Source: Escherichia phage StefiGeyer_Bas88. Taken from it: DNA of 64,000 bases. The DNA lies in the sequence record PQ850628.1. One strand, given 5' to 3'. The translations under genes were made by a program, and so were the position numbers. A model generated the notes under the pieces. The model searched no databases and was not told the origin of the DNA. It saw only the letters and a program-made list of their open reading frames with translations. Of the stretch, positions 30,145-60,132 are shown one piece after another. How positions within the stretch are numbered: position 1 is the first letter of the stretch; every line of letters starts with the position of its first letter.

Positions 30145-30619
30145 CTACCTCAACCAAAGCTCTCTCAATGATTTCATCCCAAGATGCTTCATGGTCCACT
30201 GGAACAATAGGATTAATGTGGTCAACAGCTACTTCCTTAAGAGGAGAGTCATTACCACACATGGCACACTTGTAGTGCATTGCCAGCTTGCCAGTCTTAG
30301 GGTTGATCTTACGTTCTGTCTGAGCTTCTTTGAGAGCATCAAACATAGGCTTCCACTTTCTAGTCAGAGAACGAATCCCTGACTTGATGAAGGAATTGTA
30401 ACGTGCTTCAGTCCACTGGTTTGAACATCTTGTTTTCTCAGCCTTCGCCATAACCAACATCCATCTCAGCGTCTTCCCAAATACGTTTGTTAATACGATG
30501 TGATTCTTTTTCAGCACGAGGGATACGTCCAGTACGACGATCAAATGCTTGATGTTTAATCTTCTGGTCTTTGCGAGACTCACGATTAGAGGAATTTTCA
30601 TCATACGAACGATAGTCAA
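30047..30619 (-). CDS. HNH endonuclease
   Basis: CAMCGN...VDHINPIVPVDHEASWDEIIERALVEVDGFQVLCKEPCHKIK: Cys pairs flanking the H-N-H core. Confidence 0.55.
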   Translation of the reverse strand: MTIVRMMKIPLIVSLAKTRRLNIKHLIVVLDVSLVLKKNHIVLTNVFGKTLRWMLVMAKAEKTRCSNQWTEARYNSFIKSGIRSLTRKWKPMFDALKEAQTERKINPKTGKLAMHYKCAMCGNDSPLKEVAVDHINPIVPVDHEASWDEIIERALVEVDGFQVLCKEPCHKIKTKEENDARREFKKSRDS

Positions 30620-37015: not shown

Positions 37016-37327
37016 CTACTTCTCCACCACAAAGAGGTTAACTTCAATGAAAGTTTCGTATTGTGTTGACTCCTGCTTACGGGTGTAGTAGAAATGACGA
37101 CCTTCTAATGCACCTCCGTACTGAGTGGCACATCTTTTAACCATCTCTTTTATCACATCTACAACTGATACGCCTTTCCACGGACGTAACCCATGAGTAG
37201 GAATTTCTGCTGTGCAGGTTACTTGTGTGTAACCCACATCTTGGAGAGGTATATCAAGAATCAGTTTTGCCCAAGCATCAAAATTGAGCTTGGGATTATA
37301 TTTAACTTCAGTTTTGATATCAATCAT
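37016..37327 (-). CDS. hypothetical protein
   Basis: 103-aa ORF immediately downstream of DNA polymerase. Confidence 0.4.
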   Translation of the reverse strand: MIDIKTEVKYNPKLNFDAWAKLILDIPLQDVGYTQVTCTAEIPTHGLRPWKGVSVVDVIKEMVKRCATQYGGALEGRHFYYTRKQESTQYETFIEVNLFVVEK

Positions 37328-39174
37328 TAGTGAGTATGATTCCAGTTAAGCCCAATCTTACAATCTGATGCAAGAGGGCATTCCATCTTGAGGTATTCAC
37401 CCGCTTTACGAACACACTCCTCAGTGAGAGTGCGAAGTTTGTTAACATCGTCACGATGTACAGTGAACTGACCTTCATCATGCATGTCGATAACCTTCGC
37501 ACAACGAACACCATCACGCTCAATCCATTTATTGAGGAATAGCATTGCATACTTCATAACAATCGCCCCAGCGCTCTGTAAGAGCGTATTTAAGGCTTTG
37601 TGTGTCATGACCTTTCCTGTACCGTCACGTCTCATTGTAATACGACGACCGTCAACACCGTAGATGTATCCACTTTGTGCTTTCTCTGTCATACGTTCAA
37701 TAAGGATTGCAATACAAGGGTTCTCTGCTAAGAATCTAGCTCTCATTATAGAACCTTCATCAGCCCCACCACCAACAATACTACCTAGCTTAGCATCACC
37801 AGCTCCGTAGTTGAATGCGTAGATAAACGTCTTAGCATTATCACGGGTAGGCAAGCCAGCAAGTTTCTGGTTATGGGAGTGAATATCACCCTGTAAGAGA
37901 ATATCTCTGTACAATACGGCAGATGCTAAACCGCGTTCAGCTTCTCGTTTCTTAGCTGGGTTATTCTCTTGTTCTGCCTCTGCCAACATCTCACGACACT
38001 CTTTAATAAGGTAGTGAGCCAGCATACGCAGTTCTAACCCTGAACCATCATAACCAAGAAATACTTCATGACCAGAAGGTATGTAATATTTCAGAGCACC
38101 TATCGGTTTGTCTTTCTTGCCCGGTTTTCCCACTTCGTAGATAGTGTTTGTACCTTTTCGTACGTAACACCCATCAGGGATATGGTTGGTAATGATGATA
38201 GGATTGTGATTACTATCACTTGAGGTACAGTCAGACTGAAATAGACTGCGGCACTCGTGACCAAACAAACCGCGAGAAGGAATATTAACAACAATACGGT
38301 GTTTAAAACGAAATGTCGGAGTAGCGCAGCTATTAGCTTCGGCGGACAACTTACCATCTTCTCGTTCCTTGTCTATAAGACCATTAATCAAGCCAAGCCT
38401 ATGAGCCGCTACAACACGTCTCTTAAGCAAACTTCCCACACCCCCTAGCTCACCCCCAAGACCTTCTTCAAGCGTCTCCTCGAGGTTTGTAGGAGCTGTA
38501 GGCCATTTGTTTGACATGGCTAGAGCTTTCTTAATTTCATCAAAGGTTACAGGCTTCTTCCTGTTCGGATTCAAACCTAAACCGCTAACGTACGCTTTCA
38601 TGTAATTGACAGTGTGATAACGGAAGTGTTTATCCAAGAACCGACGAATGTCAGCGTCAATCATCTCAGCTGTCTGTTTTTCTTTAGCGTTTCCTCGCAT
38701 CCAAGCAGAATACCAAGCAGCATATGTGCCATACTTCTTCATCGCTTTACGGATTTCGTAAGTATTCCAAGGTTTCTTGGATGTGTTCCACTCTGGAGGA
38801 ATAAAGCCTTCGTCCATCAAGGCTTCTTTGATACGTGCATCTTTCGATGGGTCGAAGTCTACATACTCAACGCAAGTAAACGCCCCACCGATATCTTCTC
38901 TTTTAAGACCAACTCTGTCACAATAGAGCTGAGGCCACTTCTGTAAAGCACCTGACTTCTTAAAAGGTTTCGAATAAGTTGAACCATCCACCCGCATTTT
39001 GGGGAGGAGAGGAATCAGTTCTTTATCAATATTGACAATAATCTCTTTGAGAAGGTGAACAAACCACCGAGCGTTTCTTCTGTGGAAGTTGACGCCATGC
39101 TTCGCCTGCTTTGAGATTATATCAGCGACTGTCATCTCCGTTATGAAAGGTAACTTATCAGGGTTATCCATCAC
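37327..39174 (-). CDS. DNA polymerase, family A (polymerase domain only)
   Basis: Motif A YDGSGLELRMLAH, motif B RDNAKTFIYAFNYGAG, motif C VIDMHDEGQF; no 3'-5' exonuclease motifs in its N-terminal region. Confidence 0.85.
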   Translation of the reverse strand: MMDNPDKLPFITEMTVADIISKQAKHGVNFHRRNARWFVHLLKEIIVNIDKELIPLLPKMRVDGSTYSKPFKKSGALQKWPQLYCDRVGLKREDIGGAFTCVEYVDFDPSKDARIKEALMDEGFIPPEWNTSKKPWNTYEIRKAMKKYGTYAAWYSAWMRGNAKEKQTAEMIDADIRRFLDKHFRYHTVNYMKAYVSGLGLNPNRKKPVTFDEIKKALAMSNKWPTAPTNLEETLEEGLGGELGGVGSLLKRRVVAAHRLGLINGLIDKEREDGKLSAEANSCATPTFRFKHRIVVNIPSRGLFGHECRSLFQSDCTSSDSNHNPIIITNHIPDGCYVRKGTNTIYEVGKPGKKDKPIGALKYYIPSGHEVFLGYDGSGLELRMLAHYLIKECREMLAEAEQENNPAKKREAERGLASAVLYRDILLQGDIHSHNQKLAGLPTRDNAKTFIYAFNYGAGDAKLGSIVGGGADEGSIMRARFLAENPCIAILIERMTEKAQSGYIYGVDGRRITMRRDGTGKVMTHKALNTLLQSAGAIVMKYAMLFLNKWIERDGVRCAKVIDMHDEGQFTVHRDDVNKLRTLTEECVRKAGEYLKMECPLASDCKIGLNWNHTH

Positions 39175-43664: not shown

Positions 43665-43940
43665 TTAAATACCTTTCAGAGCCGTGTCTAAAAATGCACG
43701 GAGATTAGATTCAGTTTGCATACCTGATAAGCTGTAATGAGCACCACTGTTCTTATCAGGGATGACAAAGGCTGGGATACTGCGAACACCATATTCAATG
43801 GCTCGCTCTCGACCATCACCTTCAGAGATATTTACTTCTTCAACTTCTACACTGTAGTCAGCCACAACCTTCTTAAACACAGGAGCCATAGCTGCACACG
43901 GAGCACATGAATTACTATAAAACTTAATTACTTTACTCAT
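43665..43940 (-). CDS. thioredoxin/glutaredoxin-like protein
   Basis: ATG at 43940; CxxC active site in KFYSNSCAPCAAMAPVF. Confidence 0.6.
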   Translation of the reverse strand: MSKVIKFYSNSCAPCAAMAPVFKKVVADYSVEVEEVNISEGDGRERAIEYGVRSIPAFVIPDKNSGAHYSLSGMQTESNLRAFLDTALKGI

Positions 43941-43941
43941 T

Positions 43942-44118
43942 CTATTCCTTGTTAATAAACAGGTTGATATGACGCTGGGTAGCAGGAACAACAATAAAAG
44001 ATTTATACTGACCTTTTGCTAAGTCATGAGCAATCTTCTTTGTCTGACCAAGACCCATCACACAGCCACTAACGATAATGGCATGTGCTTGTAATTCTTC
44101 AGGTAGGTTTAGTTTCAC
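43942..44118 (-). CDS. hypothetical small protein (58 aa, GTG start)
   Basis: GTG at 44118 preceded by AAGGAA; stop one nt before the thioredoxin ATG; fills gap between annotated ORFs. Confidence 0.3.
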   Translation of the reverse strand: MKLNLPEELQAHAIIVSGCVMGLGQTKKIAHDLAKGQYKSFIVVPATQRHINLFINKE

Positions 44119-44568: not shown

Positions 44569-45135
44569 TTAGTAAGACACGTCACCACTAGAGTGGGACA
44601 TGTTGCTCTTGACGAAGTAACAGAACTTGCCAAGACCTTCATTAATTTCTTGAAGCATACTCTGGTCTACTGGATAGGTGCACAAGTCTGAATCAAACTC
44701 GTCCATCTTTTCAATGATACACATCAGAGTCATGCACATGTCGGAAAGCATACCGTCCATGTCGAGATCAGCACTACCTTCTCTGAACCAAGCACAACTA
44801 AGATAGCTACTAGCTGTTGCATCCACTTTGATACAGTGATAACGCATTCGCTCAGCTACTCGGTCTCCTGTTTCACGAGCATAGTCTTCTAATTCATCGA
44901 ACATACCATGAACACCTTGGAAACCAGCTCCAGAGACGTTCCAGTGGTAATTCTTTGCTTTGATGTGTAGAAGCTCAAGGTTAGCCTGCACACCGCATAG
45001 GATGTGCTCTAGACTGTTACCGCTGATCAGTTTATTCATTCCCTCAAGACGAGAGATAGAGGAGTCAGTTGTAGAGAATGGGTTACTAGAACCCACTCGT
45101 GTTAGTTCAGGTAAGTCGAAGACATTATTATGCAT
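44569..45135 (-). CDS. Dps/ferritin-like protein
   Basis: ANLELLHIKAKNYHWNVSGAGFQGVHGMFDELEDYARETGDRVAERM matches the Dps pattern (N.HWNV.G..F...H..F.E.Y). Confidence 0.5.
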   Translation of the reverse strand: MHNNVFDLPELTRVGSSNPFSTTDSSISRLEGMNKLISGNSLEHILCGVQANLELLHIKAKNYHWNVSGAGFQGVHGMFDELEDYARETGDRVAERMRYHCIKVDATASSYLSCAWFREGSADLDMDGMLSDMCMTLMCIIEKMDEFDSDLCTYPVDQSMLQEINEGLGKFCYFVKSNMSHSSGDVSY

Positions 45136-45946: not shown

Positions 45947-46146
45947 TATCTGTCAACCGATTCAGGGACAAACTGCATTACACATACCTGATTACGAGGG
46001 AGATTTATTTCACAAGCAGCTTTTCTATCAGCAACCTTTGCTGATGAGTTAGGGCCTATTTGAGCCATCATTATTCCCATAGCAAACATGCCGATGATTA
46101 TGCCAATTGATAGAGATGCTACGGTTTCTTGTTTCATCTTAATCAC
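45946..46146 (-). CDS. small membrane protein
   Basis: 66 aa with hydrophobic segment SLSIGIIIGMFAMGIMMA. Confidence 0.35.
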   Translation of the reverse strand: MIKMKQETVASLSIGIIIGMFAMGIMMAQIGPNSSAKVADRKAACEINLPRNQVCVMQFVPESVDR

Positions 46147-46676
46147 ACCCCTTTAGATGCAACTACACTATTGCTACCATTGTAGCGACCCTTCACTGCA
46201 TATGAATCGTCGCCAGCGTGAGAGTGTTCAAACATAACCATCTGACCAACACGCATTCCAGCACGAACTCGTAAGCTGTGATTGTGGGTAACATTATGGA
46301 ACTCAAAGGTCAGCTTACTGTTGTTAAACCCTGCATCAGCCCAACCAGCATGGAGATGGTTTAAACCACAACGAGCCATTGAGGAGCGGAGTACAAACAG
46401 ACTTGAAATATTATCTGGAAGGTTAAACTCTTCCATTGAGTGAGCTAAGAAGAACTGTCCCGGAGTGATAACGATACCATCTTCAGGGATTTTTACTTCT
46501 TTCCACTTGAGGTTTTCTTTAGCATCAATGTCAACAATACCATCAGCCTGCTCTTCAACAAGGATAGTATCACCAATACGGATATCCACACTAGCAGCGT
46601 TAACATACTTATGCTCCGCATCTAAAAAGCCATTATCAATAACGCTGTGTAATTCTTGAGAACCTAAAAGACTCAT
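46143..46676 (-). CDS. dcd: dCTP deaminase
   Basis: dUTPase-fold motifs ASVDIRIGD, SSMARCGL, AGWADAGF; 177 aa. Confidence 0.75.
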   Translation of the reverse strand: MSLLGSQELHSVIDNGFLDAEHKYVNAASVDIRIGDTILVEEQADGIVDIDAKENLKWKEVKIPEDGIVITPGQFFLAHSMEEFNLPDNISSLFVLRSSMARCGLNHLHAGWADAGFNNSKLTFEFHNVTHNHSLRVRAGMRVGQMVMFEHSHAGDDSYAVKGRYNGSNSVVASKGV

Positions 46677-48109
46677 GAGTTTCTGTTTCCTTGTACAGAT
46701 GATGCCAAATTGTTAATCATATTACGAGCTGTTTCACGAGTTAGTGTAACACCTGCTAAGTTGTTATGAAGTTCACCAGAGAGTTCACGAGCAGTAGCCC
46801 GAAGCTCTTCACCAAGTGAAGTGTTAGAGTGAGCCAAACCATTACGACGACCAACAGGTCGAGGAGTTTCGTTAGCGTCATTAGCTAAAGATGCAAAACC
46901 AATACGAGCAGCTTCACGAGCGGCTATAGCTGCTACCCGATCTTCCGTAGGGGTTGGCAAATCACCAACCCCTACACGTTCAATATCACTAGCACGTAGA
47001 CCCTGAGTAACAGATCTTACTGTTTCCCATGAACGACGAGAGCGCTGCAAATCATCCATTGATGGAGAAGAAACAGGACGAGCAGTTCCTCCTGAGACAT
47101 GCCATGTATGGTTATGCATTCCAGAAGATCGTGCACTACCAAAACTACCGGTGAAAGTATCACGAGGTGCCATTGTACTAGGGGCTGCGAATCTTGCCTG
47201 TTGCCAAGAGTCACGTCTGTCAGTTCCCGGAGTCCAAGGCTGCGTAATTGCTTCAACACCAATAGTGGTTAACTCACTAGACCAATCTGTCTGTAGGTTA
47301 ACTTCTTCATCCAGATAGATACGACCCGCTTCCTGAGGAATATTTAATACAGTTTCCATCATCTTCAAGGTGTAGTGGCGACGTTGATTCTGATACAAGT
47401 TTACACCAGCCATAGGCCCAACTAAATCACTGATCAGATGAACTTCTGGTTCACCAAAAGCTCCCATTGCAAGGTGCATATACTCAGTAGAACTGCTGTA
47501 AACTGCAACTGTTGCTTCAGGCCACTTTTTGTGGACATACTTCATGTCACGACTTGTCACCACAGGGATATCATTAGTATATGCCATTGCAAACATACCT
47601 TCGTTCGACACATACATATCATCGAGAGTCATAAACCCTTGACAGATCATAGGGAAGCGACCGCTCAGAGTATCCATATCCAGAGGAAGGTTAATCATCA
47701 TCTGAATCTTCACTTCATCAATCTCAATTTCCAGAATCTCTTGGAAAGTGAAAAGTGCGTCAGCATAAGTTGTCCCACTAACAGGCTGGACTAAACGAGA
47801 TGTAACTTGAAGTCCCTTACTCTCTGTCCAAGACAAGAAGTTGTCAAGGAACAGTGCAGCATTACCCACGTTAGCAGGGCTGTTTTCCTGACGAGTGTTC
47901 CAACGAAACCCTCCTTGAACTAGGAAGATATCAACATCATTCGGAGTTCGGTTCTGGAAGAACGTATCACGGATAGCACCACCTGCAATAACAGGATAAA
48001 TACCATCAGGGACTACGTTATCTCTGATCAAATTACGAATCAGGTCAAGCCCTACGCTGAGGGCTTCTCCTTCTTGAAGGTTCAATTCAGACAATGGAAT
48101 CTTAATCAT
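46673..48109 (-). CDS. nucleotidyltransferase (CCA-adding enzyme / poly(A) polymerase-like head domain) with low-complexity C-terminal region
   Basis: AGGAIRDTFFQNRTPNDVDIFLV matches the class II tRNA nucleotidyltransferase GGAVRD...DxD motif; C-terminal 200 aa Ser/Arg/Thr-rich. Confidence 0.5.
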   Translation of the reverse strand: MIKIPLSELNLQEGEALSVGLDLIRNLIRDNVVPDGIYPVIAGGAIRDTFFQNRTPNDVDIFLVQGGFRWNTRQENSPANVGNAALFLDNFLSWTESKGLQVTSRLVQPVSGTTYADALFTFQEILEIEIDEVKIQMMINLPLDMDTLSGRFPMICQGFMTLDDMYVSNEGMFAMAYTNDIPVVTSRDMKYVHKKWPEATVAVYSSSTEYMHLAMGAFGEPEVHLISDLVGPMAGVNLYQNQRRHYTLKMMETVLNIPQEAGRIYLDEEVNLQTDWSSELTTIGVEAITQPWTPGTDRRDSWQQARFAAPSTMAPRDTFTGSFGSARSSGMHNHTWHVSGGTARPVSSPSMDDLQRSRRSWETVRSVTQGLRASDIERVGVGDLPTPTEDRVAAIAAREAARIGFASLANDANETPRPVGRRNGLAHSNTSLGEELRATARELSGELHNNLAGVTLTRETARNMINNLASSVQGNRNS

Positions 48110-48111
48110 TT

Positions 48112-48660
48112 CTACATTTTCCAGTTGAGAGATGGGGGATTCTTATAATCAAATCCAGCCATTTGGCAAAGACACATGTAAACCTTAACTGTCAAGTTAA
48201 CGTCTTGCTCACAATACGTGAACATGTCTTCAGTGAAAGCATCCCATGCTTCTTCCTGCTCACCATAATCACCCTTTAGCTCACCCAGAAATTCGCCCCA
48301 TTGCTTGAGGCCATGACCACGAGGGCCATGTCTTGGGTCGCCTTTGGGATATTCTGGATTGTCTCCAATACGGTCAGGCTTGAGATAACGACTCAGGCAA
48401 AGTGTATCGAAAACATTGAAACGGAAGGGTGTTACATGAGAGTAGAATTTAAAGAGAGCTGGTAGGTCAAAATCTATGATATTGTGTCCTACAACTACAT
48501 CAGCTTCCTTCAGTTTGTGAAGAGCTTCTTCAATTTGGTGAGGGCGATACCCCCACCGCTCTCCTGAGAGAATATCAAATATCCAGATACACCAGACATT
48601 TTGGATACCCTCATAAAGATTATCACCCTCAATATCGAAGGCGAATATTTTCTTTACCAA
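48112..48660 (-). CDS. DEDD-type 3'-5' exonuclease (probable proofreading subunit)
   Basis: Exo [10 protein letters not shown], Exo [13 protein letters not shown], Exo [11 protein letters not shown]; immediately downstream of primase-helicase. Confidence 0.7.
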
Positions 48661-50480: not shown

Positions 50481-50687
50481 TCAATAAAACGAACGTATTT
50501 CTTCCCACACATCATCTTGAAGATTTTTAAAACCCTGTAAAGCTGATTGGGTTCTCATGATAAAGTCTTCAGAATGTTTATTGCGGTCAAGCATACTGAC
50601 AAACTTGTCATAGCGGTTAATCTTCCACCGTAACTTTAAGTAGTCAGACTCGAGCTTTCTCAGCTTCTGTCGCTCAGTTACTGTCAT
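50481..50687 (-). CDS. hypothetical protein
   Basis: Start taken as internal ATG at 50687 (track start 50786 overlaps the upstream gene by about 110 nt). Confidence 0.35.
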   Translation of the reverse strand: MTVTERQKLRKLESDYLKLRWKINRYDKFVSMLDRNKHSEDFIMRTQSALQGFKNLQDDVWEEIRSFY

Positions 50688-51105
50688 CCTGATCACCTGC
50701 CAGATACGCTGTCCAGTCGCCAGATTCAACCAAAACATCTTGTTCTTCGTCGATATGATAAATCCATGCTTCCACAGTCTCGCCATTATCCAGCACCACT
50801 GGAATCAGTGTACGATTGTAGAAAGTGTATGGATTGTCTTTACCACGATAACCTTCCAGACCGTCATACGGACCTTCCAGACCAGCTTGGGTTGTTTCAA
50901 AGACTTCTACACGAACAGGCTTGCCATTGCTGTCATGCACCAGAGATACACTTGGGAAGTATGCTGTGCAATACTGATACAGGTTACAGTTGTTCACTGT
51001 CCAACCTTCACCAATAGACACACCACCTGCACGAGCATTGATAGCGTGGTTGTGTTGACCTTTACGAAGAGAACCATACGTTGCAACTAATACTTTATCA
51101 GACAT
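50674..51105 (-). CDS. gamma-glutamyl cyclotransferase-like (AIG2/GGACT fold) protein
   Basis: N-terminal YGSL motif (VLVATYGSLRKG), about 143 aa, downstream acidic residues consistent with GGCT-like fold. Confidence 0.55.
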   Translation of the reverse strand: MSDKVLVATYGSLRKGQHNHAINARAGGVSIGEGWTVNNCNLYQYCTAYFPSVSLVHDSNGKPVRVEVFETTQAGLEGPYDGLEGYRGKDNPYTFYNRTLIPVVLDNGETVEAWIYHIDEEQDVLVESGDWTAYLAGDQDDSN

Positions 51106-51140
51106 TATATTACCTTTTGTGTTTCAGTTAAATTCGAACT

Positions 51141-51162
51141 AGCCTCCTCTTTCGAAGAGGCT
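51141..51162 (-). other. stable RNA hairpin with GNRA tetraloop, no U-tract
   Basis: Minus-strand RNA AGCCUCUUC-GAAA-GAGGAGGCU (9-bp stem, one G-U) in the intergenic gap between 51171-51356 and the GGCT-like gene. Confidence 0.35.
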
Positions 51163-51170
51163 AAAGCAAA

Positions 51171-51356
51171 TTATTCTACTTCGAAGTGTTTGATCACACC
51201 AGTCAATACATCAGATTGGAACGTACCTACTAACTCTGCGCCTCGGAAGAAATTGACATTTGTTCCAAGTGTTTCAAAGCGTTCTGCTTGAATGTCCAGA
51301 GATTGAATATTCCCTTCTGAGTTTACTGTACGAAACATGATTGTGTATTTATTCAC
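51171..51356 (-). CDS. hypothetical protein
   Basis: 61-aa ORF, ATGA coupling with the upstream gene. Confidence 0.35.
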   Translation of the reverse strand: MNKYTIMFRTVNSEGNIQSLDIQAERFETLGTNVNFFRGAELVGTFQSDVLTGVIKHFEVE

Positions 51357-51595
51357 AGAGTTGTTACTCCCTTATCTTCTTGTGCAATTGCGATGATACG
51401 CTCAACACATTCCATTGAATATTTATCACCTCGTTTAAGGAAGGTGACAATTGCAGAGAACTGATTACCAATCATTCTCTTGTTTGTGATTCCAAACTCT
51501 TCACAGAGTTGGTTAATAGCTTTACGAGAACCAACAATCAGAGGTTCTTTTTGTTCGGTCATTCCACGACTGATCAAATCTTCGATAGACAACAT
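51353..51595 (-). CDS. hypothetical protein
   Basis: 80-aa ORF. Confidence 0.4.
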   Translation of the reverse strand: MLSIEDLISRGMTEQKEPLIVGSRKAINQLCEEFGITNKRMIGNQFSAIVTFLKRGDKYSMECVERIIAIAQEDKGVTTL

Positions 51596-51615
51596 TACAA
51601 ATTCCTTTTGTTTAA

Positions 51616-52863
51616 TTACAGAGTTACTGCTACTTCACTACCTTCAACAGTTACAGACTCTAACTTACGAGGGTTGTGGACTTGTTGCGGATGAACCGGA
51701 ACGTTCCAGCCACTGCGGTAGAAGTTACGACCATCGCAGAACAGAATGACATTGGCAGACATTGCATTAGGTTGCAGGTTGTTATGAACATGACGAATAT
51801 CTGCAATCCAGTAACCACGAGACAACACATAACCAGTAGGTGCATTACGGATTGTCTGAGTATTCATCTGACCTTCCAGTTGCATTTCTTCAGGAACTAC
51901 ATCCACTGAATCAACCGGCTGTGCGACTTGGCCTTCCAGTGCGAAGTTTTCATCATCAGCACTTTCACTGTCAGCAACCAATTCACCATCTCCATCTTCA
52001 ATTGGAGCTTCAACAGGTGTTGCATAAACCACTTTATACTGAGGAGTATAGAGAGGGTTTTGAGCTTTAACAAACTCAAGGATATTGTGACGGTAGATAT
52101 CCAGAGTTGTGCCAGTTAGGCCCGGTGCTGTATTAACTTCCAGTACCCATGCTTCTTGACCTTTGGTGATGATATCAACTGCACCGAAATCTAGACCCAT
52201 TGATTCAACAGCTTTCACTGCGTTGATCAGAGAGGCATCGTTCGGAACGTCTGTGAAGGAACTTGAGTAAACCCAACCAGTGTGATGGTTACGAACATCT
52301 TCACGATAGTTAGGGTCTTCACGATAACCGTTACGACGAATCTTTTTCTGAACATAGGTGATAGCACCTTTGAACACATGGACACGCCATTCACGACGTG
52401 GGCCTAGAATACCTTTGGTGTACAGTTCAGCTTGACCAACTGAATCACGAGGCTCTACAACAATGATACCTGAACCAGAGTGACCAGTCAGTTCATGACG
52501 TTCATACACAATGTTGCCAGAGTTTGACCACTCCTGAGCAGTTGATTGAACATCTGTATACTCAACAGTTTTAACACCTGCTTGGTCCATTACACTGAAA
52601 GCGCGACGTTTGTTCGCTGCCATATGTAAGGCTGCGGTACGGTTAAGAACAGTTGCAGAACCAAAGAAGGATTCAGGATAGCGACGGTTCCCGTAGTTCA
52701 CAACCACATCACCCTCACGAGAACGCCAGCGACTGTTCTCTGAAAGAAGACCCATTACGTTAGCGTTGATACGTTCATCACGGATAGTATCGTTAATGGC
52801 AGTTACCAGAGCGTTAACAGAATCAGAAGGGCCATACGGAAGAACACGGATACGAGTAGTCAT
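51616..52863 (-). CDS. ATP-grasp family ligase with C-terminal extension
   Basis: RimK/glutathione-synthetase-like core incl. AWVLEVNTAPGL; about 150-aa acidic C-terminal extension. Confidence 0.6.
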   Translation of the reverse strand: MTTRIRVLPYGPSDSVNALVTAINDTIRDERINANVMGLLSENSRWRSREGDVVVNYGNRRYPESFFGSATVLNRTAALHMAANKRRAFSVMDQAGVKTVEYTDVQSTAQEWSNSGNIVYERHELTGHSGSGIIVVEPRDSVGQAELYTKGILGPRREWRVHVFKGAITYVQKKIRRNGYREDPNYREDVRNHHTGWVYSSSFTDVPNDASLINAVKAVESMGLDFGAVDIITKGQEAWVLEVNTAPGLTGTTLDIYRHNILEFVKAQNPLYTPQYKVVYATPVEAPIEDGDGELVADSESADDENFALEGQVAQPVDSVDVVPEEMQLEGQMNTQTIRNAPTGYVLSRGYWIADIRHVHNNLQPNAMSANVILFCDGRNFYRSGWNVPVHPQQVHNPRKLESVTVEGSEVAVTL

Positions 52864-52865
52864 TT

Positions 52866-53096
52866 TTAGATACCTTTTAGTTTAAGAATTTCGTTACGAC
52901 AGGATTGAATTTTAACTTCGATTTCCCAATACTTGGCGAACATCTCGTCTTCTTGGTCATCGCTTGGTGAATCAATTAGGTTAAAAGCAAACGGATACAG
53001 CTTTCGCTGCTCCGTTACCAGTTGTTGAAGTCGGAGTTGTTGATACTCCAGCATTGTCAGGTGAGGCTTAGCTCCCTTGCTTGACATGAGGCTCAA
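52866..53096 (-). CDS. hypothetical protein
   Basis: 76-aa ORF within cassette. Confidence 0.35.
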   Translation of the reverse strand: MSLMSSKGAKPHLTMLEYQQLRLQQLVTEQRKLYPFAFNLIDSPSDDQEDEMFAKYWEIEVKIQSCRNEILKLKGI

Positions 53097-53301
53097 CTTT
53101 AATCCCCTTCAATTTCACATAGTCAGCCAACACGTTGTTGATAACGGTTGGGAAAGGGATTTCAACTGGAGAGTTAACCAGTCCCCCAATACCTTCTTGC
53201 ATCCATTTCTGAATAGCTCGAAGGTTATCACATCCTGTGCTTGTCATTGGGATACGTCGAGTGGTTACAACGTTATCCAACATCAATTTACGAACTTCCA
53301 T
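53068..53301 (-). CDS. hypothetical protein
   Basis: 77-aa ORF within cassette. Confidence 0.35.
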   Translation of the reverse strand: MEVRKLMLDNVVTTRRIPMTSTGCDNLRAIQKWMQEGIGGLVNSPVEIPFPTVINNVLADYVKLKGIKVEPHVKQGS

Positions 53302-53312
53302 AACTTCACCTC

Positions 53313-55346
53313 TTAATGTTTACCTTTACAGTAATCTGAATTACAGATCACCCTGTTTTCTTTGTTTAGTGAGCAAATTTCTGCATCACGCCACGGAATT
53401 TGTTTATAACAGACCGCACAAAACCCAATTGAAGTCCAGAGGGCTTTTGTGAACTCAGCTGTTCGTTGTCCGTCGTAACTGACAACTGTTTTTCGGAGAG
53501 TTGTTTGCTTTTCTGGAAATGTTTCCGCTTTCTCAGCGGGCACCTCCTTTGGGGCATTCTTTGGACCATAAACAGAGATGGCATAGGTATCGCCACCACG
53601 TTTTTCCAAATAAGAGTTTGGAACATCAGACAGCTCAATATCACCAGAACGTTTAGCTGAACTAGCCATTACAGTCATTCGGCTAAGCATACGCTGATCA
53701 ACACGAACTGCTACTTCAGGGCGACGTGGGTTAGTTGTGTCGACTGCTTTAGTCCAAATGTAACCTTCAGACAATGTAGTGTTAGTCACTTTGTCTTTGA
53801 TTTCTTTGGCACAGACATAACAAATATCTTCACCACGAAGTTTACTCATTTCGTTATCAAACTCGAAATCAGTTTTAACATTGCCACATACAGCACAGAC
53901 ACCTAAAGGAATGTCTTCATCTTCTTCAGACGGTTTGGACAACGCTTCGAAACAGGCCGGATGCCAATATGCTTGGTAAGCGAACACAGCTTTCTTAGCA
54001 TCTTTCCATTCAATGTGCTTGTCACAACCGCCACAATCACCATGAGAATGTGATTCCCAGAACTTACGGGTGACTTCCACACCATTCTTAGTGATGAAGG
54101 AGTCTTCTAAATCAAAAGGGATATCATCATCAAAATCAGCGGTGGTGCTTTGAGGCTCCTTATCGGTAGCATCAACAAACAGCCCTGAAGTGAGTACGAG
54201 GCGAATCATACTGTCCACTTCGGAGATACAAGCAACCGTCCCGCGATACACCACCTTTGGGTTTTCGAGAGCCTTCAAGTATTCACTCTTGGCTACATTA
54301 TGAACATCACCCTCAACATACTCTTGAGCAGCATCATCATAAATATAACCAACCATCTTACCACGGTCAGTGTTGTTGTAAGCGTGGAACTCGTGAGGGA
54401 TGATATCCACACGACCGTCACGACGATACGGAAGACCACGATCGGCAGCCAGTTTATTCTGATCTTCAATCGCTTTACGACGACGAATGTCTCCGCTTGT
54501 CACGCCGGGCTTGTCGTCTTTGTTTCCGTAAATGTCGCTTGTGCTGCTGCTTGACTTGTTTGTCTGTTGGTTCTGATATAGAGAGGAGTTCGAGTAATAG
54601 CCGCCCCAGCGACTCGTTACCGTAAAAACCGGAAGCTTGTGCTCCACCTCTTGAGTCAGAGTCATACGGTTGCCAGACAAATCAAAGATGTATTCAGTTC
54701 CCACTTTACACTCAAAGTGATCATTGATACGGTTCTTGTGTGACTTGGAACGATTAAGAATCCACATCAACATATCTTCTTCAGAAGCACCAAACCAATC
54801 CAGACCACAACGGGCCAGATGGAAAGGACGTTCATCGTTACGAATGATATGCAGAGTATTGTCTTTGGCGTCATGCCAGATTAAAGTGAACGCACCATCC
54901 AACTTCTGGATAGTCTCTGCTGCGCCGATGGTGTTGATTGAATGACAGATGTTTTCGCTATCAACTTCGAAATTCTTATGATCTGGTAACAGTTCCTGAT
55001 CTAACAGTGTACCATTATGAACCAGAGTAATGTCACCATGAGAGAATGGGTGAGCATTTCGAGCATTGACAGCACCACGTGTGGCATGTCGGCTATGACC
55101 AACAATCCACGATGGAGGAACTACATAGTTCGTAAGCCCCTTAGTAAGATTCGTGTACCCTGTCTGGAGCATGAAGGCATAGGAAGGAAGTGCTTCTTTA
55201 TAAGAAAATACTTTTTCATCACCTTTACGCTGACCGAACACACCAGTTGAGTGCTGACCACGGAAGACTCCAGCATACAGAAGCTGGTTGAATACGTCTA
55301 AGTCTGTGGAGGTCATGTTGCCCCCAGCTAATACGATACCACAAAT
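53313..55346 (-). CDS. class-II (Ntn-type) glutamine amidotransferase with C-terminal zinc-ribbon region; probable non-AUG start
   Basis: HSRHATRGAVNARNAHPF...HNGTL GATase-II motifs; the conserved catalytic N-terminus CGIVLAGGN lies upstream of the first in-frame ATG (55316), reached only via ATT at 55346-55344, itself preceded by AGGTGG; C-terminal Cys clusters CGGC...CAVCGN...CYVC...CAVC...CNSDYC. Confidence 0.65.
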   Translation of the reverse strand: MCGIVLAGGNMTSTDLDVFNQLLYAGVFRGQHSTGVFGQRKGDEKVFSYKEALPSYAFMLQTGYTNLTKGLTNYVVPPSWIVGHSRHATRGAVNARNAHPFSHGDITLVHNGTLLDQELLPDHKNFEVDSENICHSINTIGAAETIQKLDGAFTLIWHDAKDNTLHIIRNDERPFHLARCGLDWFGASEEDMLMWILNRSKSHKNRINDHFECKVGTEYIFDLSGNRMTLTQEVEHKLPVFTVTSRWGGYYSNSSLYQNQQTNKSSSSTSDIYGNKDDKPGVTSGDIRRRKAIEDQNKLAADRGLPYRRDGRVDIIPHEFHAYNNTDRGKMVGYIYDDAAQEYVEGDVHNVAKSEYLKALENPKVVYRGTVACISEVDSMIRLVLTSGLFVDATDKEPQSTTADFDDDIPFDLEDSFITKNGVEVTRKFWESHSHGDCGGCDKHIEWKDAKKAVFAYQAYWHPACFEALSKPSEEDEDIPLGVCAVCGNVKTDFEFDNEMSKLRGEDICYVCAKEIKDKVTNTTLSEGYIWTKAVDTTNPRRPEVAVRVDQRMLSRMTVMASSAKRSGDIELSDVPNSYLEKRGGDTYAISVYGPKNAPKEVPAEKAETFPEKQTTLRKTVVSYDGQRTAEFTKALWTSIGFCAVCYKQIPWRDAEICSLNKENRVICNSDYCKGKH

Positions 55347-55423
55347 TTTCTAATCCACCTGAAGGGTAAACCCTTTCATCTAATTAACCTTTAAATGCGC
55401 CCTTTATCAGAGCGCCCATTGTG

Positions 55424-56524
55424 TTACAGCAGTCGTTCTAATTGCATTTCCAGATGGTCTGGAATGTAATCGGTGATGTTATTATCACTGCTACCTGATT
55501 CACGCATCAGAGCAAACATGTGACGAATTTCACGAACCGTTGCGATTCGAGTGTTTTCAATCTGAGGGGTGTAATAGGTCATGATCTCTTCATAAACAGA
55601 GTTAGCATTACCTCGTACATATCCCAAGAAACCGTAGAAGTCACCCATGTCACGCAAGTTGATAAGGATTTCACCATCAGGTCCAGTCTGCTGTACACGA
55701 ACACGACCAACCAGAGTAACAGAATGTTCACGACAGAACAGAATATCACGAGCCAAACGATAACCGCCAGTCAGGTCATCATCATTAGGTGTGTAGTCCA
55801 GAGGCAGATACTGAATCATAGGAGCGAAGCGTAGCTCATTCAGTTTCTCAACATATGCTTCATTGTCCAAATCTGCATACTCAACAGCTAGTTTCTTGAG
55901 AACCAAGAAGCGGTTGACCAGATTAAGGAGTTGGCTTTTCTTCCACTTTGGCTCTGAGATACGAAATTCAACAGAACCAAACTGAGCCAGAGGTAATAGG
56001 TTAAGGGAGGTGTACTTGTCCCAGCTATTAACAAGAGTATTGAAGAAGGCTTCACCATCTCGGTTGAACGCTGCGGAAGCATTCATTACCTGTGCTTGAA
56101 CAACAGCAAAGGCAGGACAGAAGTTGCTACGATAGCGATGGTATCCAGAACATTTGAACATCATCTTTTCATAGAACGTCCATCCAAGAATTACTTTCTT
56201 CAGGATGTTACTATCAGCGTCACGCATATCCATATGAACGTGAGTAGAGCAGCGCCAAGTCCCTTCAGCTTCAGAGTCTTGTACTGCTTCACTCAGATTG
56301 TTAATAGCACTAAGCAATTCTACACCGTTATAAGGCCGTGCACAAACCATCTCACAGCCATCACGAAGTGAACCATCTTCAGTACAAACCCAAAGGTCTG
56401 CATCAATTTCAGAGGTTCCTTCAACTTCCAGCTCGATGCCAATACCACACTGAAAAGCGATGCTTGGGTGCGGCTCAGCCAGACGAGCATTACGGTATCC
56501 AAAAACTTGTGCTACGGTTGTCAT
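55424..56524 (-). CDS. glutamine-synthetase-like carboxylate-amine ligase (amidoligase)
   Basis: GIGIELEVEG and RCSTHVHMD resemble GCS2/YbdK-type amidoligase motifs. Confidence 0.5.
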   Translation of the reverse strand: MTTVAQVFGYRNARLAEPHPSIAFQCGIGIELEVEGTSEIDADLWVCTEDGSLRDGCEMVCARPYNGVELLSAINNLSEAVQDSEAEGTWRCSTHVHMDMRDADSNILKKVILGWTFYEKMMFKCSGYHRYRSNFCPAFAVVQAQVMNASAAFNRDGEAFFNTLVNSWDKYTSLNLLPLAQFGSVEFRISEPKWKKSQLLNLVNRFLVLKKLAVEYADLDNEAYVEKLNELRFAPMIQYLPLDYTPNDDDLTGGYRLARDILFCREHSVTLVGRVRVQQTGPDGEILINLRDMGDFYGFLGYVRGNANSVYEEIMTYYTPQIENTRIATVREIRHMFALMRESGSSDNNITDYIPDHLEMQLERLL

Positions 56525-57147
56525 AACGTTTCCACCAACTCTACATTATATGATGACAGATCTGAAGAAATATGCTTGAACTTCTCCAGAAGATTTAAAG
56601 ATTGACGACCATTGTCGCCGTAACCAGCAGAAAGATCAACTTGACCTACAAGTGCCCCTTTGTAATAAACTTTACCATCGACAGGGTTGATGTAGATGAA
56701 GCGAGTAACCAGACCTTCGAAGTCAGGATTAAACAGATTATACACCAGCTCTCCCGGAATCGAACGACCCATTGAAGGAGGTGCGCCACGTAATTTGTTC
56801 CCCATCAGACCTTTAGCTCGCTGACGAACAGGGTTGATATGAGTCCAGCTTACCATGTTGTTGCCGTGTTGTAAGTATCCCACATCTGGAGATTCCAGAA
56901 TAAGGCTTTGATCAAACACAGGAATGCCCTGAACAACCTGTCGTTCAAACTGCCCTTCGGCGTTCTTAGACCAGCGTTCAACTTCAAAAGTTAAGGCCAT
57001 TTCTGCTTCGTGAGAGAAGTCATCTTCTCCAAAGCGGTTTGCTTGGTTCACGTTGAGTACATAAAGAGGTAAGTTAATTCCTCGTTCTGCACGTTGGGCA
57101 ATCCATGTTCCGCAATAATAATGCTGAAAATCTCTTAACAGGCTCAC
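56521..57147 (-). CDS. hypothetical protein (cassette member)
   Basis: 208-aa ORF, ATGA coupling. Confidence 0.45.
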   Translation of the reverse strand: MSLLRDFQHYYCGTWIAQRAERGINLPLYVLNVNQANRFGEDDFSHEAEMALTFEVERWSKNAEGQFERQVVQGIPVFDQSLILESPDVGYLQHGNNMVSWTHINPVRQRAKGLMGNKLRGAPPSMGRSIPGELVYNLFNPDFEGLVTRFIYINPVDGKVYYKGALVGQVDLSAGYGDNGRQSLNLLEKFKHISSDLSSYNVELVETL

Positions 57148-57156
57148 GATAACACC

Positions 57157-57963
57157 TTAGATAATCTGGAGTTTAGAGGAGAACTTATCCGCTTCTTTAA
57201 CATCGTTGCTATTGATGATGTTGTGAAGCTTTTCGATAGGCAGACGGGAGTGCAGAGACATGAGAATTTCCATATCACAGCCCTGAATAACCTTATCAAC
57301 TTGATCGTAAACAAACTTACGAGTGGACTGTTCACCAATCCAGAAGTTCGACAGAGAACGGTATTCAATACCATAATCTTTATAACGAATAGCAGATGCC
57401 TTGCCGTAAAGCTCTTTACGACGAGTGTCCTTATCCATAATTACCGCTGGAAGTGACAAGAAGTAATCACACAGAACACCCAGCATCATCTGAGTCTGTC
57501 GAGTTACTTCCAAAGACCCTGCAACACCGAGGTGTACGTGACCGCCAGCAGTACGAAGACCTTTGTCTGTCGCTACCGGAGATGGGTTTTTCTGACCAGT
57601 GAAGGCGTTGAAATCAGGAGTACAGCCAAACACAAAGGCTGATGGATGGAATGATTGCAGCTCTTCAGAAGTGTACACATGAGAACTAATCCCAAGTGCA
57701 GCTTCCATACCACGTTCATTAAGAACTTTGTTGGTCAGATCAATACCACGCTGGATGTTATCATCAAACGCTTCGAACCCTTTCTGTGGGTTAATATCGA
57801 ATTCAGCCAGAACGTTGTCTTCTTGAAGACGAACATCAGGGGCCAGATCAATTTTGTTATCTTTAGAACAGCCCAGCTTACCAGCCACAGAGGTGATAAT
57901 ACCAGAAGCAGTACGAACAAACATTTCAGGGTCAGAACCAATAAGGAAAGCACGCTTAGTCAT
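57157..57963 (-). CDS. second carboxylate-amine ligase-like protein (COOH-NH2 ligase type)
   Basis: ATG at 57963 (overlaps upstream stop); FLIGSDPEMF and GGHVHLGV motifs. Confidence 0.45.
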   Translation of the reverse strand: MTKRAFLIGSDPEMFVRTASGIITSVAGKLGCSKDNKIDLAPDVRLQEDNVLAEFDINPQKGFEAFDDNIQRGIDLTNKVLNERGMEAALGISSHVYTSEELQSFHPSAFVFGCTPDFNAFTGQKNPSPVATDKGLRTAGGHVHLGVAGSLEVTRQTQMMLGVLCDYFLSLPAVIMDKDTRRKELYGKASAIRYKDYGIEYRSLSNFWIGEQSTRKFVYDQVDKVIQGCDMEILMSLHSRLPIEKLHNIINSNDVKEADKFSSKLQII

Positions 57964-58906
57964 TGTAATACTCCACAAGTTCATCAAAAAGGGAAACAAC
58001 ACGGGCACCAGCTTCTTCTGGTGTCATTGAGGAAGGTACTGCTTGCATCAAGCGTTCAATAAAACTGCGAACAGTAATTCTGTCCATACGCTGATCTAAT
58101 ACTTCACGTTTATGGCCTGCACACATTGACCAGAGACGCAACCACTCACTCATACTTTCGTAATAGTCAGGGTCTTGGTCACGACGACGAGCCATACTAC
58201 GAAGAACTCCGTCATTATGGTTTCGTACATAACCATCTCTGTTATCACCAACACCGAACACGTTCTGAACCCATACGTTTTCAGAAAATTCGTCAGTGGT
58301 ACAGACCAGTGGCAAGAATGCAATTGCACTCATTTCGCCAGTAAAATAGGTCGCTGCTGATTCATCATCAGTATCCACATCATGTGAATAATCCCAACGA
58401 CCAAAGAAGTTACGACTTAAACCAGCTAAGCGTAAAGCTAAGCCGATTCGTTGTCGCTTGAGTAACTCTTCCTTGTCTTGAACGCCTTCCTGAAGGAACT
58501 CCATTCCCATAAAATCCCCATCCAGATAACTACGGAGGGTCATTAATCCAGTAAACACCTTGTCTGCTGGGTGGTCTCGAAGGTTCACGGCAACTGAGTT
58601 CACCGAAGTGACAGAGAACATGTTTTTATAGCAAGACATTGAGTTAAAAATGTCTGTTGCTTCAACTAAAGCTCTTTCGATATCTTTAGCTGGTACGCCA
58701 TAAAAATTGTGAGGCCAGAAGTTGATAACTCCAACTTCTGAAGTTCTATCACGAAGGCTTGAGAGATTGATACTGTCGCCATTAATGTCTGTAACAGCAT
58801 ACATATGCTGACAGTTGAAAGTACCAAAACAAGCTCGCCCTCTGAACACTGACTCACCAAAGTTCTCTGATGGTGTTACCGGAGCAGTCGATGCGGAGAT
58901 TGACAT
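57956..58906 (-). CDS. hypothetical protein (cassette member)
   Basis: 316-aa ORF, no recognisable motif. Confidence 0.45.
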   Translation of the reverse strand: MSISASTAPVTPSENFGESVFRGRACFGTFNCQHMYAVTDINGDSINLSSLRDRTSEVGVINFWPHNFYGVPAKDIERALVEATDIFNSMSCYKNMFSVTSVNSVAVNLRDHPADKVFTGLMTLRSYLDGDFMGMEFLQEGVQDKEELLKRQRIGLALRLAGLSRNFFGRWDYSHDVDTDDESAATYFTGEMSAIAFLPLVCTTDEFSENVWVQNVFGVGDNRDGYVRNHNDGVLRSMARRRDQDPDYYESMSEWLRLWSMCAGHKREVLDQRMDRITVRSFIERLMQAVPSSMTPEEAGARVVSLFDELVEYYND

Positions 58907-58914
58907 ATTCGCCT

Positions 58915-60132
58915 CTATTTATTGAAGAATAATTTTTCCAAAATGTTTTCCCACTCTTCTGAGGGACGTACTGTATAATTACTACCTGTCAGTCCATTGG
59001 ACATACTACTGATAATGTTATACATGTTGTAGCTTCGAGCTGAAGCTGTTTCATTGTTCCAGTTATAACCGAACACAATTTTAGCAAAAGATGTTTCAGA
59101 TTCAGCCACCTCTCGGATAAATTCAACCAAGAGTGACTTTTCTGTGATGATTGGGCGGGTATCTTCCGACAGATGGCAATATTGAGGCAAAAGGATTGGC
59201 AAGAACATCGAGTTGTTCACTCGACAATCACGAACACCTTCACTGCGATAGATCAGACTGGAGAAGTCTTCATCACGAAGATGACCTTCACCTCCAGTGT
59301 ATTCACACTGTCGCCATTTGGTCTGGCGAGGCTCAACCATTGTACTACCAACACCCACTGTATACAGAGATGCTTGGAAGATACAGGAATCGTAATCATT
59401 CCCTGTTAAAGCAACACGTTCGTTACCGAACACATCCACTGAAGAGTTGATCAGTCGGCTGAATGCAAGAGAGGCTAAAGGAGACCAGCCCTTCTTATAC
59501 ATCTTGTTCAACATTTCATACACAGCAGATTTTTCATCATCTGTATAGAATGTGCGATTCAACATCAGATAGAACAGAGCACGATCAGCGGGACAGCCAT
59601 CAGTGCAAACACCCATGAACCCTACTTCATGCCATACCAGACATGAGTCAGAGTCTTTGTCCATGAATGCTGCAAAGGTTTCCATAACAACACGATCAGT
59701 GATGTCAGGACGGTTGTTTTCTTCTGCCCACGTTTCCACATGAGAAGGAGGACGAGGGTCTTCATTTTCTAACCCTTCACGGAAATACTGAGTAGCGATA
59801 TATTCAGTATCACCATAACGTCTTACACCGTGAGCTGGAAGATGTGTTCCGGAGTTCCAGATATACTTGATTTCAGACATAGGCAACATATTCTCAAGAA
59901 CGTTCTCTTCAGCAGTGCCTTGACGAACCATCATATTTCCACTCCACACCTTGATGCGGATATTCCAGCCGAAATTACTATCGTATGTATTATAGTAATC
60001 AGGATCACCATCTTCATCATCGTCATAATCACCACCCTGATAGTAACCTGCTTTCAGGAAACCATAACAAGGGGGCCAGACGGTTACAACGTCTTCTGAT
60101 TCTTTCCAGCTTTGAAGTGTTACAGGGAACAT
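58915..60132 (-). CDS. hypothetical protein (cassette member)
   Basis: 405-aa ORF, RBS GAGGT; acidic N-terminal tract DYDDDEDGDPDYY. Confidence 0.45.
   Translation of the reverse strand: MFPVTLQSWKESEDVVTVWPPCYGFLKAGYYQGGDYDDDEDGDPDYYNTYDSNFGWNIRIKVWSGNMMVRQGTAEENVLENMLPMSEIKYIWNSGTHLPAHGVRRYGDTEYIATQYFREGLENEDPRPPSHVETWAEENNRPDITDRVVMETFAAFMDKDSDSCLVWHEVGFMGVCTDGCPADRALFYLMLNRTFYTDDEKSAVYEMLNKMYKKGWSPLASLAFSRLINSSVDVFGNERVALTGNDYDSCIFQASLYTVGVGSTMVEPRQTKWRQCEYTGGEGHLRDEDFSSLIYRSEGVRDCRVNNSMFLPILLPQYCHLSEDTRPIITEKSLLVEFIREVAESETSFAKIVFGYNWNNETASARSYNMYNIISSMSNGLTGSNYTVRPSEEWENILEKLFFNK

Follow-up and report, generated by a model that had tools for sequence, protein, structure and literature searches.

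A class-II-type nucleotidyltransferase in the replication block of Suseptimavirus-type coliphages

Introduction

What does a nucleotidyltransferase with the catalytic head of a CCA-adding enzyme, and little else of such an enzyme, do among the replication genes of a coliphage? The question arises from Escherichia phage StefiGeyer_Bas88 (PQ850628.1). We analyzed a 64,000-nucleotide stretch of this record, which we call the window. It contains an open reading frame (ORF) at 46673..48109, on the minus strand, that an earlier note made from the sequence alone had described as a CCA-adding-enzyme-like nucleotidyltransferase (NTase). We find that this gene encodes a predicted-competent NTase of the Pol-beta superfamily, with a head of class II (the kind found in CCA-adding enzymes and bacterial poly(A) polymerases, or PAPs). 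The NTase region is 88.8-93.9% identical, at the nucleotide level, to 22 coliphage genomes (including TH43, SU7, ECBP2, IME267, EK010, and Bas86/87). The matching coliphages belong to the Gordonclarkvirinae and several of them are placed in the genus Suseptimavirus. The window is from a Suseptimavirus-type coliphage of this subfamily.

The gene and its catalytic head

The ORF is a real gene. It is intact in the window: it begins with ATG, encodes 478 amino acids followed by a stop codon, and lies on the minus strand (as do all the parts of the gene given below). The reading frame is kept in 22 phage genomes, and the indels are all in-frame. Within the genus, the ratio of nonsynonymous to synonymous substitution rates (dN/dS) is 0.075 for the N-terminal domain and 0.33 for the C-terminal tail, as compared to 0.046 for the adjacent exonuclease and 0.034 for the adjacent dCTP deaminase. 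The tail is under purifying selection, though relaxed. The protein also matches phrog_12715 ("nucleotidyltransferase") at full length (E 9.8e-163, residues 1-471 on profile positions 1-456/457). The class-II-type head is not a new observation: it is already annotated in public records and papers, and homologues carried a class-II CCA-type nucleotidyltransferase domain annotation by 2012-2014.

We then examined the catalytic residues of the head (residues 1-143; 47681..48109) across 32 distinct members of the family. Both motifs highlighted in the earlier note, GGAIRD and DVDIF, are where it had placed them, about 40 residues from the N terminus. Motif A, G43-G44-A-I-R47-D48 (GGxxRD; 47966..47983), aligns to GGAVRD of the CCA-adding enzyme with the structure 6ibp. 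The second motif reads D58-V-D60-I-F62, and its two metal-binding carboxylates (D58-V-D60; 47930..47938) align to DVD of the same enzyme. Together, GGAIRD at 43-48 and DVD at 58-60 agree with the class-II pattern GGxVRD...DxD. All four of the named residues of motif A (G43, G44, R47, and D48) and both aspartates are invariant in the 32 members, as are F62, Y115, I125, Q136, P153, Y191, and K195. (Position 188 is always D or E.) In a structure prediction by AlphaFold2 (AF2), which is described below, the invariant Tyr115 lies in a flexible loop beside the active site.

The candidate for the third catalytic carboxylate is E124 (47738..47740), which is on a strand (122-130) in the AF2 model and directly before the invariant I125. 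This position is D in 22 of the 32 members and E in the other 10. The proposed role of E124 follows the pattern of the Pol-beta superfamily: an hG[GS] turn, then [DE]h[DE] on the next strand, and then a third carboxylate on a later strand. All of these elements are present, and so is the minimal alpha-beta-alpha-beta-alpha-beta core fold. When HMMER extended the alignment to 6ibp, it paired the catalytic EVTTF strand with residues near Q101 instead. We rejected this pairing because the position is not conserved and the AF2 model has a helix and a loop there. On the model, E124 appears to be a better candidate than the region around Q101. The earlier note had proposed that absence of the catalytic triad would refute the NTase assignment. 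With D58 and D60 invariant and D or E at position 124 in all 32 members, the triad is kept, and so the assignment of the head is not refuted.

Profile comparisons agree with the earlier note that the head is of the CCA-adding and poly(A) polymerase kind. A profile of the family matches 6ibp in the PDB at E 0.0014, essentially via motif A. The poly(A) polymerase head family (PF01743) has weak matches to 17 of 25 relatives (best E 2.5e-4), none of which reaches the gathering threshold of PF01743; neither does the NTase of the window. (Searching the PDB with the single sequence gave only a spurious match, of a designed protein to the tail.)

Beyond the head, the conserved motifs are those of the family itself. 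In class-II enzymes, motif B (RRD) recognizes the 2'-OH of the ribose, and motif D (EDxxR) is the amino-acid template for base selection. Neither is recognizable in the family alignment, where the conserved later motifs are FPxxC[R/K] near 152-157, RDxxYxxKK at 187-195, and an aromatic residue followed by S-x-G-L at 276-280.

Predicted architecture

The AF2 model of the full-length protein, built with 18 near-identical sequences, was unusable (predicted local distance difference test, or pLDDT, of 33). For the N-terminal 295 residues with 29 diverse sequences, AF2 gave a pLDDT of 84.7 and a predicted template modeling (TM) score (pTM) of 0.83. When we compared the 295-residue model to the PDB with Foldseek, a check that the earlier note had suggested, class-II CCA-adding enzymes ranked first (E 1.7e-4 upward, TM scores of 0.29-0.43), but the superposition covers just ~150 of the 295 modeled residues, or the head plus little more.

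After the head comes a subdomain (residues 144-283; 47261..47680) that is specific to the family. Strands and helices alternate in this part of the AF2 model. As modeled, it does not correspond to the all-helical neck and body of class-II enzymes. It includes a basic and aromatic helix, R187-D188-x-x-Y191-x-x-K194-K195 (47525..47551), in which Y191 and K195 are invariant and R187 is present in 27 of the 32 members. This helix is a candidate contact for the triphosphate or the substrate. The conserved core ends with the motif W276-S-x-G/E-L-T (47267..47284), with an aromatic residue at 276 in 28 of the 32 members and G at 279 in 19.

Overall, the similarity to class-II NTases (PF01743, including CCA-adding enzymes and E. 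coli PAP I) consists of motif A followed by DxD and by an acidic residue on the next strand, along with the structural match (Foldseek E about 2e-4) and the profile match to 6ibp. In contrast, the helical neck is missing, and so are the body and tail domains, which bind the acceptor and T-arm of tRNA; motifs B and D, which the neck would carry, are not recognizable. The NTase of the window has the alpha/beta subdomain and a Lys-free tail instead, and it has no Pfam match at threshold. Judging from its predicted architecture, the NTase has a class-II-type head yet does not belong to the CCA-adding enzyme family. So, "CCA-adding-enzyme-like" is apt for the fold and motifs of the head, but "CCA-adding enzyme" would be a misnomer. 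The earlier note was right that the C terminus is not a tRNA-binding body.

The C-terminal tail

The tail (residues 284-478) is rich in Arg, Ser, Thr, and Ala, non-repetitive, and free of Lys. In residues 286-478 (193 amino acids), R and A each account for 11.9%, S for 10.9%, and T for 9.3%, while K, Y, and C are at 0%. R is enriched 2.4-fold and S, T, and A are enriched about 1.5-fold. This agrees with the compositional bias that the earlier note had pointed out, but "low-complexity" was an overstatement: the entropy of the tail is 3.86 bits, versus 4.14 for the N-terminal domain, just ~10% of the 20-residue windows in the tail have low entropy, and there are no tandem repeats.

In an alignment of 18 close relatives, the indels and most of the substitutions are in a variable linker (residues 296-350; 47060..47224). 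Within the genus, the C-terminal part of the tail (residues 351-478; 46676..47059) is conserved, and all 18 close relatives have identical last 20 residues. This part has helix-prone segments of A, R, E, and L, with tail helices predicted in the low-confidence model only. Between genera, the tails are unalignable, and their lengths vary from about 0 to 197 residues across the family. Their net charge varies as well, from +3 in the NTase of the window to -4 to -9 in other genera.

What the tails have in common is avoidance of lysine. In the NTase of the window, the Lys-free run extends over residues 250-478, with a chance probability of 2e-6 at the proteome's frequency of Lys. Across 34 otherwise unalignable tails (after residue 210), K is at 0.4%, versus 9.0% for R, and the tails also share scattered W and F residues. 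We rejected GC content as the explanation, as it is 0.46-0.48 in the tail versus 0.42-0.45 around it. RNA-binding peptides typically prefer Arg over Lys, and in PAP I the C-terminal region takes part in binding RNA.

The avoidance of Lys is not peculiar to the NTase's tail, as very long runs without Lys are also found in several virion proteins of the window. The longest Lys-free run that would be expected for the proteome is ~120 residues. A gp19-like "membrane protein" (19357-20388, plus strand) has a run of 305 of its 343 residues, and two tail-fibre proteins (15290-18295 and 11439-13631, both on the plus strand) have runs of 203 and 170 residues.

Distribution and divergence of the family

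Word-indexed searches for homologues, with a single sequence or with a profile, found only relatives above 85% identity and one distant one. When 1.84 billion representative proteins were scanned exhaustively with HMMER, just 27 relatives emerged at E up to 1e-3; their alignments run from residue 1 to about 210-330, with 25-39% identity. With tblastn, the NTase gene turned up in 97 phage records, every one of them from a phage of Escherichia or Shigella. For comparison, 96 records have the adjacent primase/helicase at 80% identity or more, so the NTase is effectively universal in this lineage. As far as these sequence searches indicate, the family is tiny and confined to this phage lineage, and the NTase is a universal member of the middle (DNA-metabolism) gene block of the Gordonclarkvirinae.

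Metagenomic relatives at 26-28% identity keep the gene order primase/helicase, exonuclease, NTase, deaminase. Bruynoghevirus LUZ24 shares the exonuclease subunit, the primase/helicase, and the block of amidoligase genes that is described below. In Vibrio phage SJSY21, the shared genes are those for the primase/helicase and the exonuclease. Neither phage has the NTase or the deaminase at this place. Because the two genes are missing together, they look like one lineage-specific insertion. We also rejected the idea that the NTase is an obligatory subunit of the replisome, as the split-PolA replisomes of LUZ24 and SJSY21 lack the gene.

The NTases of other Gordonclarkvirinae genera also lie between the exonuclease subunit and dCTP deaminase, and they share the core (residues 1-283), its invariant residues, and a Lys-free tail, but between genera the cores are only 31-42% identical and the tails differ in length (129-197 amino acids) and net charge. 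The three genera correspond to three types of NTase alleles, which are 31-42% identical to one another, versus 79-96% for the flanking genes. For example, between the window and Kuravirus SU10, the NTase is 31% identical (over 59% of its length), while the exonuclease is 79% identical, the deaminase is 92% identical, and the primase/helicase is 94% identical. (By part, the NTase's head is 34% identical and the subdomain is 29% identical.) Across the genome, the NTase is the most divergent gene of at least 150 amino acids with a syntenic counterpart; even the tail fibres are 59-83% identical.

Between genera, dN is 0.60 for the N-terminal domain of the NTase, versus 0.15 for the exonuclease and 0.06 for the deaminase. 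Within Suseptimavirus, the corresponding values are 0.024, 0.031, and 0.016. We rejected a steady fast clock, because the NTase's dN within the genus (0.024) is like that of its neighbors (0.016-0.031) and its dN between genera is 4-10 times higher than theirs. Since divergence is ordinary within the genus and high between genera, episodic divergence or ancient alleles seem to fit better than a constant rate.

In the Kuravirus phage pEC-N1203-2Af.1, it is the dCTP deaminase that is unusual (locus L010, 2948-3502). It is only 56-61% identical to all of the others, which are 92-100% identical among themselves, and the phage's NTase and exonuclease are typical of the genus. The sequences suggest a local replacement of the deaminase allele.

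Gene neighborhood

The genes on either side of the NTase are as the earlier note had them. Upstream is a DnaQ-like 3'-5' exonuclease subunit of PolA (48112-48660, minus strand; PF01612 and phrog_403/38876), and downstream is dCTP deaminase (46143-46676, minus strand; PF22769, E 1e-34). The stop codon of the exonuclease (TAG) is followed by a 2-nucleotide gap and then by the ATG of the NTase, and the stop codon of the NTase (TGA) overlaps the start codon of the deaminase as ATGA. The three genes are packed for translational coupling, and we found no convincing promoter or terminator between them.

The order of the genes is a cluster of amidoligase, ATP-grasp, glutamine amidotransferase (GATase), and gamma-glutamyl cyclotransferase (GGACT) genes, then primase/helicase, the exonuclease subunit of PolA, the NTase, and dCTP deaminase. 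After the deaminase come small ORFs, a Dps-like protein, thioredoxin, ThyX, PhoH, and the polymerase subunit of PolA. The order around the NTase is identical in the window and in annotated relatives. Besides ThyX, the phage encodes a dNMP kinase.

Related nucleotidyltransferases

A search of BFVD with the AF2 model gave many matches to phage NTases of 140-220 amino acids that have a "poly A polymerase head" (E 3e-9 to 3e-4, target TM scores of 0.5-0.62). These small NTases are from Autographiviridae and other podophages, such as phiKMV (gp16), LKD16 (ORF16), gh-1, PP2, LIMEzero, Cd1, and phiAS7. They resemble the NTase of the window in having GGAxRD...DxD, in the fold of a head plus a short extension, in diverging quickly between close relatives (the NTases of LKD16 and phiKMV are 36% identical), in being uncharacterized, and in their location within T7-type DNA-metabolism modules, by helicase, ligase, or polymerase genes. 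For instance, ORF16 of LKD16 has GGAARD...DID and lies between the helicase and ligase/PolA. On the other hand, they have no long tail and are not beside dCTP deaminase, and in sequence they resemble the family at motif A only (hhalign E 3.7e-4 over 41 columns). Because LKD16, phiKMV, gh-1, and PP2 carry equivalents, minimal NTases of the class-II type are a recurrent, uncharacterized passenger of these modules.

Other minimal NTases function in conflict systems, including MNT antitoxins, MenT/AbiEii toxins, CD-NTases, and Gad2. MNT antitoxins AMPylate HEPN toxins, and Gad2 is an anti-Gabija protein with the NTase fold. These proteins share the Pol-beta fold with the NTase of the window, and perhaps a role in conflict, but they use GS-type motifs instead of GGxxRD. 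Neither family profiles nor the best structural similarities linked our NTase to CD-NTases, MNT, or AbiEii/MenT, and PADLOC gave no match.

Restriction sites

The authors of the 2025 BASEL paper reported that the Gordonclarkvirinae show remarkable resistance to restriction-modification systems, and they suggested, as speculation, that the conserved deaminase and NTase might indicate DNA modification (PMC11990801). The window does show avoidance of some sites: there are 580 palindromic hexamers versus 1067 expected, with 12 sites at zero copies, and 5 copies of CCWGG versus 76 expected. (Over-represented sequences include CAGCAG, with 114 copies versus 22 expected, and AGCT, with 409 versus 239.) But the window retains 27 EcoRV sites, 9 EcoRI sites, 6 EcoKI sites, and 114 EcoP1 sites, so site avoidance alone does not explain the reported resistance. 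Nothing in our analysis links the NTase to restriction resistance.

Possible functions

The earlier note had offered three candidate roles (repair of tRNA 3' ends, RNA tailing, and synthesis of a nucleotide signal), which are plausible as proposals. To our knowledge, every characterized enzyme with a class-II head moves a nucleoside monophosphate from an NTP to the 3'-OH of an RNA, without a template. Because of this, RNA 3'-end transfer would be the most likely chemistry for the NTase: it would add nucleotides, template-independently, to RNA 3' ends during infection. In CCA-adding enzymes, nucleotides are selected and the tRNA is measured by the neck, body, and tail domains. Because the NTase lacks these, PAP-like tailing or end repair is more likely than the activity of a true CCA-adding enzyme. 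As a flexible tether, the tail would connect the NTase to RNA or to a partner protein. Because the divergence between genera is extreme, the NTase may contact something that varies between hosts. Taken as a whole, we favor a PAP-like RNA 3'-end nucleotidyltransferase with a tethering tail, but only tentatively, as an assignment that is possible rather than probable.

Several observations weigh against this assignment. The NTase has no match in Pfam (E up to 1), NCBIfam, or PADLOC, and neither motif B nor motif D is recognizable in the family alignment. No RNA ligase or polynucleotide kinase is encoded within the window. The tail is close to neutral in charge, which is not what one would expect if it simply bound RNA as a polycation. 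Cca and PAP I are already present in the host. The gene is placed among, and coupled with, genes for replication and dNTPs, which could suggest DNA as the target instead. Our literature search found annotation and speculation only and no functional study of the family. As to phage RNAs, there are no tRNA genes in the window, and an Rfam scan of the window for a structured RNA substrate found none. The earlier note's statement that there are no tRNA genes holds for the window but not for this type of genome. Bas87 (64904-64976) and SU10 (about 66656-66731) each carry a single tRNA-Arg(UCU), just past the position of the window's right end (64000). In both phages, the CCA of this tRNA is encoded in the genome, so its maturation needs no NTase, and we rejected that role.

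If the substrate is nevertheless a tRNA, then the enzyme might act in counter-defence, by restoring the CCA of acceptor ends that were damaged or blocked by host toxins or defence nucleases, as in the first role offered by the earlier note. We consider this unlikely. The head is of the same type as in CCA-adding enzymes, the fast divergence would fit a host conflict, in jumbo phages, CCA-adding enzymes are viewed as tools for RNA repair (PMC7824862), and the Gordonclarkvirinae are reported to be highly resistant to the defence systems tested (PMC11990801). But the body and tail domains that would bind and measure the tRNA are absent, with only the ~150 residues superposing on CCA-adding enzymes, and there is no recognizable motif D to select C and A. 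The partner repair enzymes are absent from the window, E. coli has its own Cca, and the NTase is a universal core gene at a fixed position, not a variable accessory. A role in acting on DNA together with the dCTP deaminase, either in covalent modification or protection of the DNA or as a terminal transferase (or at primer ends) at the replication fork, is less likely again. It would account for the coupling of the gene between the exonuclease subunit of PolA and the deaminase, for the apparent insertion of the NTase and deaminase as a unit, and for the small NTases with the same head between helicase and ligase/polymerase in phiKMV-like phages. The ribose-sensing RRD motif is not recognizable, and the resistance that led the BASEL authors to name this gene pair as a candidate cannot be explained by avoidance alone, given the EcoRV, EcoRI, and EcoKI sites that remain. 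A further possibility concerns primer ends: the primers that T7-type primases make are ACCA/ACCC, and T7 replication can reportedly be primed by the 3'-ACCA ends of tRNAs (Zhu et al., PNAS 2012), so a CCA-type enzyme beside a T7-type primase/helicase could act on such ends. Against a role on DNA, we know of no DNA-modification pathway with a Pol-beta-type NTase and no enzyme with a class-II head that acts on DNA. Also, related split-PolA replisomes function without the NTase, and because the phage encodes ThyX and dNMP kinase, the deaminase is explained by an ordinary supply of dTTP.

The divergence of the NTase, which exceeds that of the tail fibres and of its flanking genes (dN of 0.60 between genera versus 0.06-0.15) and is mirrored by the NTases of LKD16 and phiKMV, would also suit an enzyme for counter-defence or host takeover that nucleotidylylates a protein or a small molecule. 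The invariant Tyr115, in its loop by the active site, would be compatible with this as well. However, the GGxxRD head is of the RNA-specific class-II type, not the GS type of MNT and CD-NTases, PADLOC had no match, and universal presence at a fixed position is atypical of anti-defence cassettes. We view this possibility as more doubtful than a role on DNA. Last, the protein might be a dead enzyme, or a former NTase that is kept as a scaffold or tether in the replication complex. A large and variable tail and tight coupling to replication genes would suit a scaffold, and proteomics detected one peptide from the SU10 NTase in a crude, polyethylene glycol-precipitated virion preparation (PMC4281155). 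Nevertheless, none of the catalytic-type residues varies among sequences whose identity is otherwise 17-38%, which is hard to explain without catalysis, so we consider a scaffold to be very improbable.

Other features of the window

The family-A DNA polymerase of this phage is split: the exonuclease subunit next to the NTase has 182 amino acids (48112-48660), and the polymerase subunit has 615 amino acids (37327-39174, minus strand) and is ~9 kb away. The phage's own thioredoxin (near 43665-43994, minus strand) may act as a T7-style processivity factor. The protein encoded at 44569-45135 (minus strand) is annotated as "DNA binding protein"; only its residues 56-99 match a ferritin/Dps-like domain, which is thus partial (PF00210, E 2e-7). 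All of the relatives keep this protein.

Directly upstream of the primase/helicase is an amidoligase-type block (50674-60132, minus strand) that encodes a GGACT gamma-glutamyl cyclotransferase, a RimK-like ATP-grasp ligase, a GlmS-like glutamine amidotransferase, two COOH-NH2 ligases/amidoligases, and several unknowns. Pseudomonas phage LUZ24 also has this block ahead of its primase/helicase. One gene of the block (58915-60132) is only 41% identical to its counterpart in SU10.

There is an HNH endonuclease gene in the window (30047-30619). In a metagenomic relative (locus L003, 3184-6510), an inserted HNH/NUMOD4 homing-endonuclease gene splits the primase/helicase into two ORFs, and more HNH genes are scattered across the replication block.

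Significance

This NTase family is an uncharacterized form of a known kind of enzyme with unusual evolutionary features. It is a core gene of abundant coliphages with broad host ranges that are reported to resist restriction and most of the defence systems tested, and no other large gene of its replication block, which is otherwise highly conserved, diverges as fast. A bolder idea, which we think is improbable, is that the NTase and the co-inserted deaminase form the core of an undescribed DNA-protection chemistry, with DNA or dNTPs modified at the nucleotide level or after replication, and with the genus-specific, Lys-free tail tethering the enzyme to the replisome. If true, this would explain how the Gordonclarkvirinae resist restriction despite their many EcoRV, EcoRI, and EcoKI sites. 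Genetically tractable members are available: Bas86 and Bas87, two BASEL phages, both plate on E. coli K-12. Look-alike minimal enzymes are found in the replication modules of many T7-type phages. Identifying the acceptor (the end of an RNA or of a DNA, a protein, or a small molecule) would give a function to hundreds of phage genes, and it would also test the published idea that this gene pair explains the resistance to restriction-modification.

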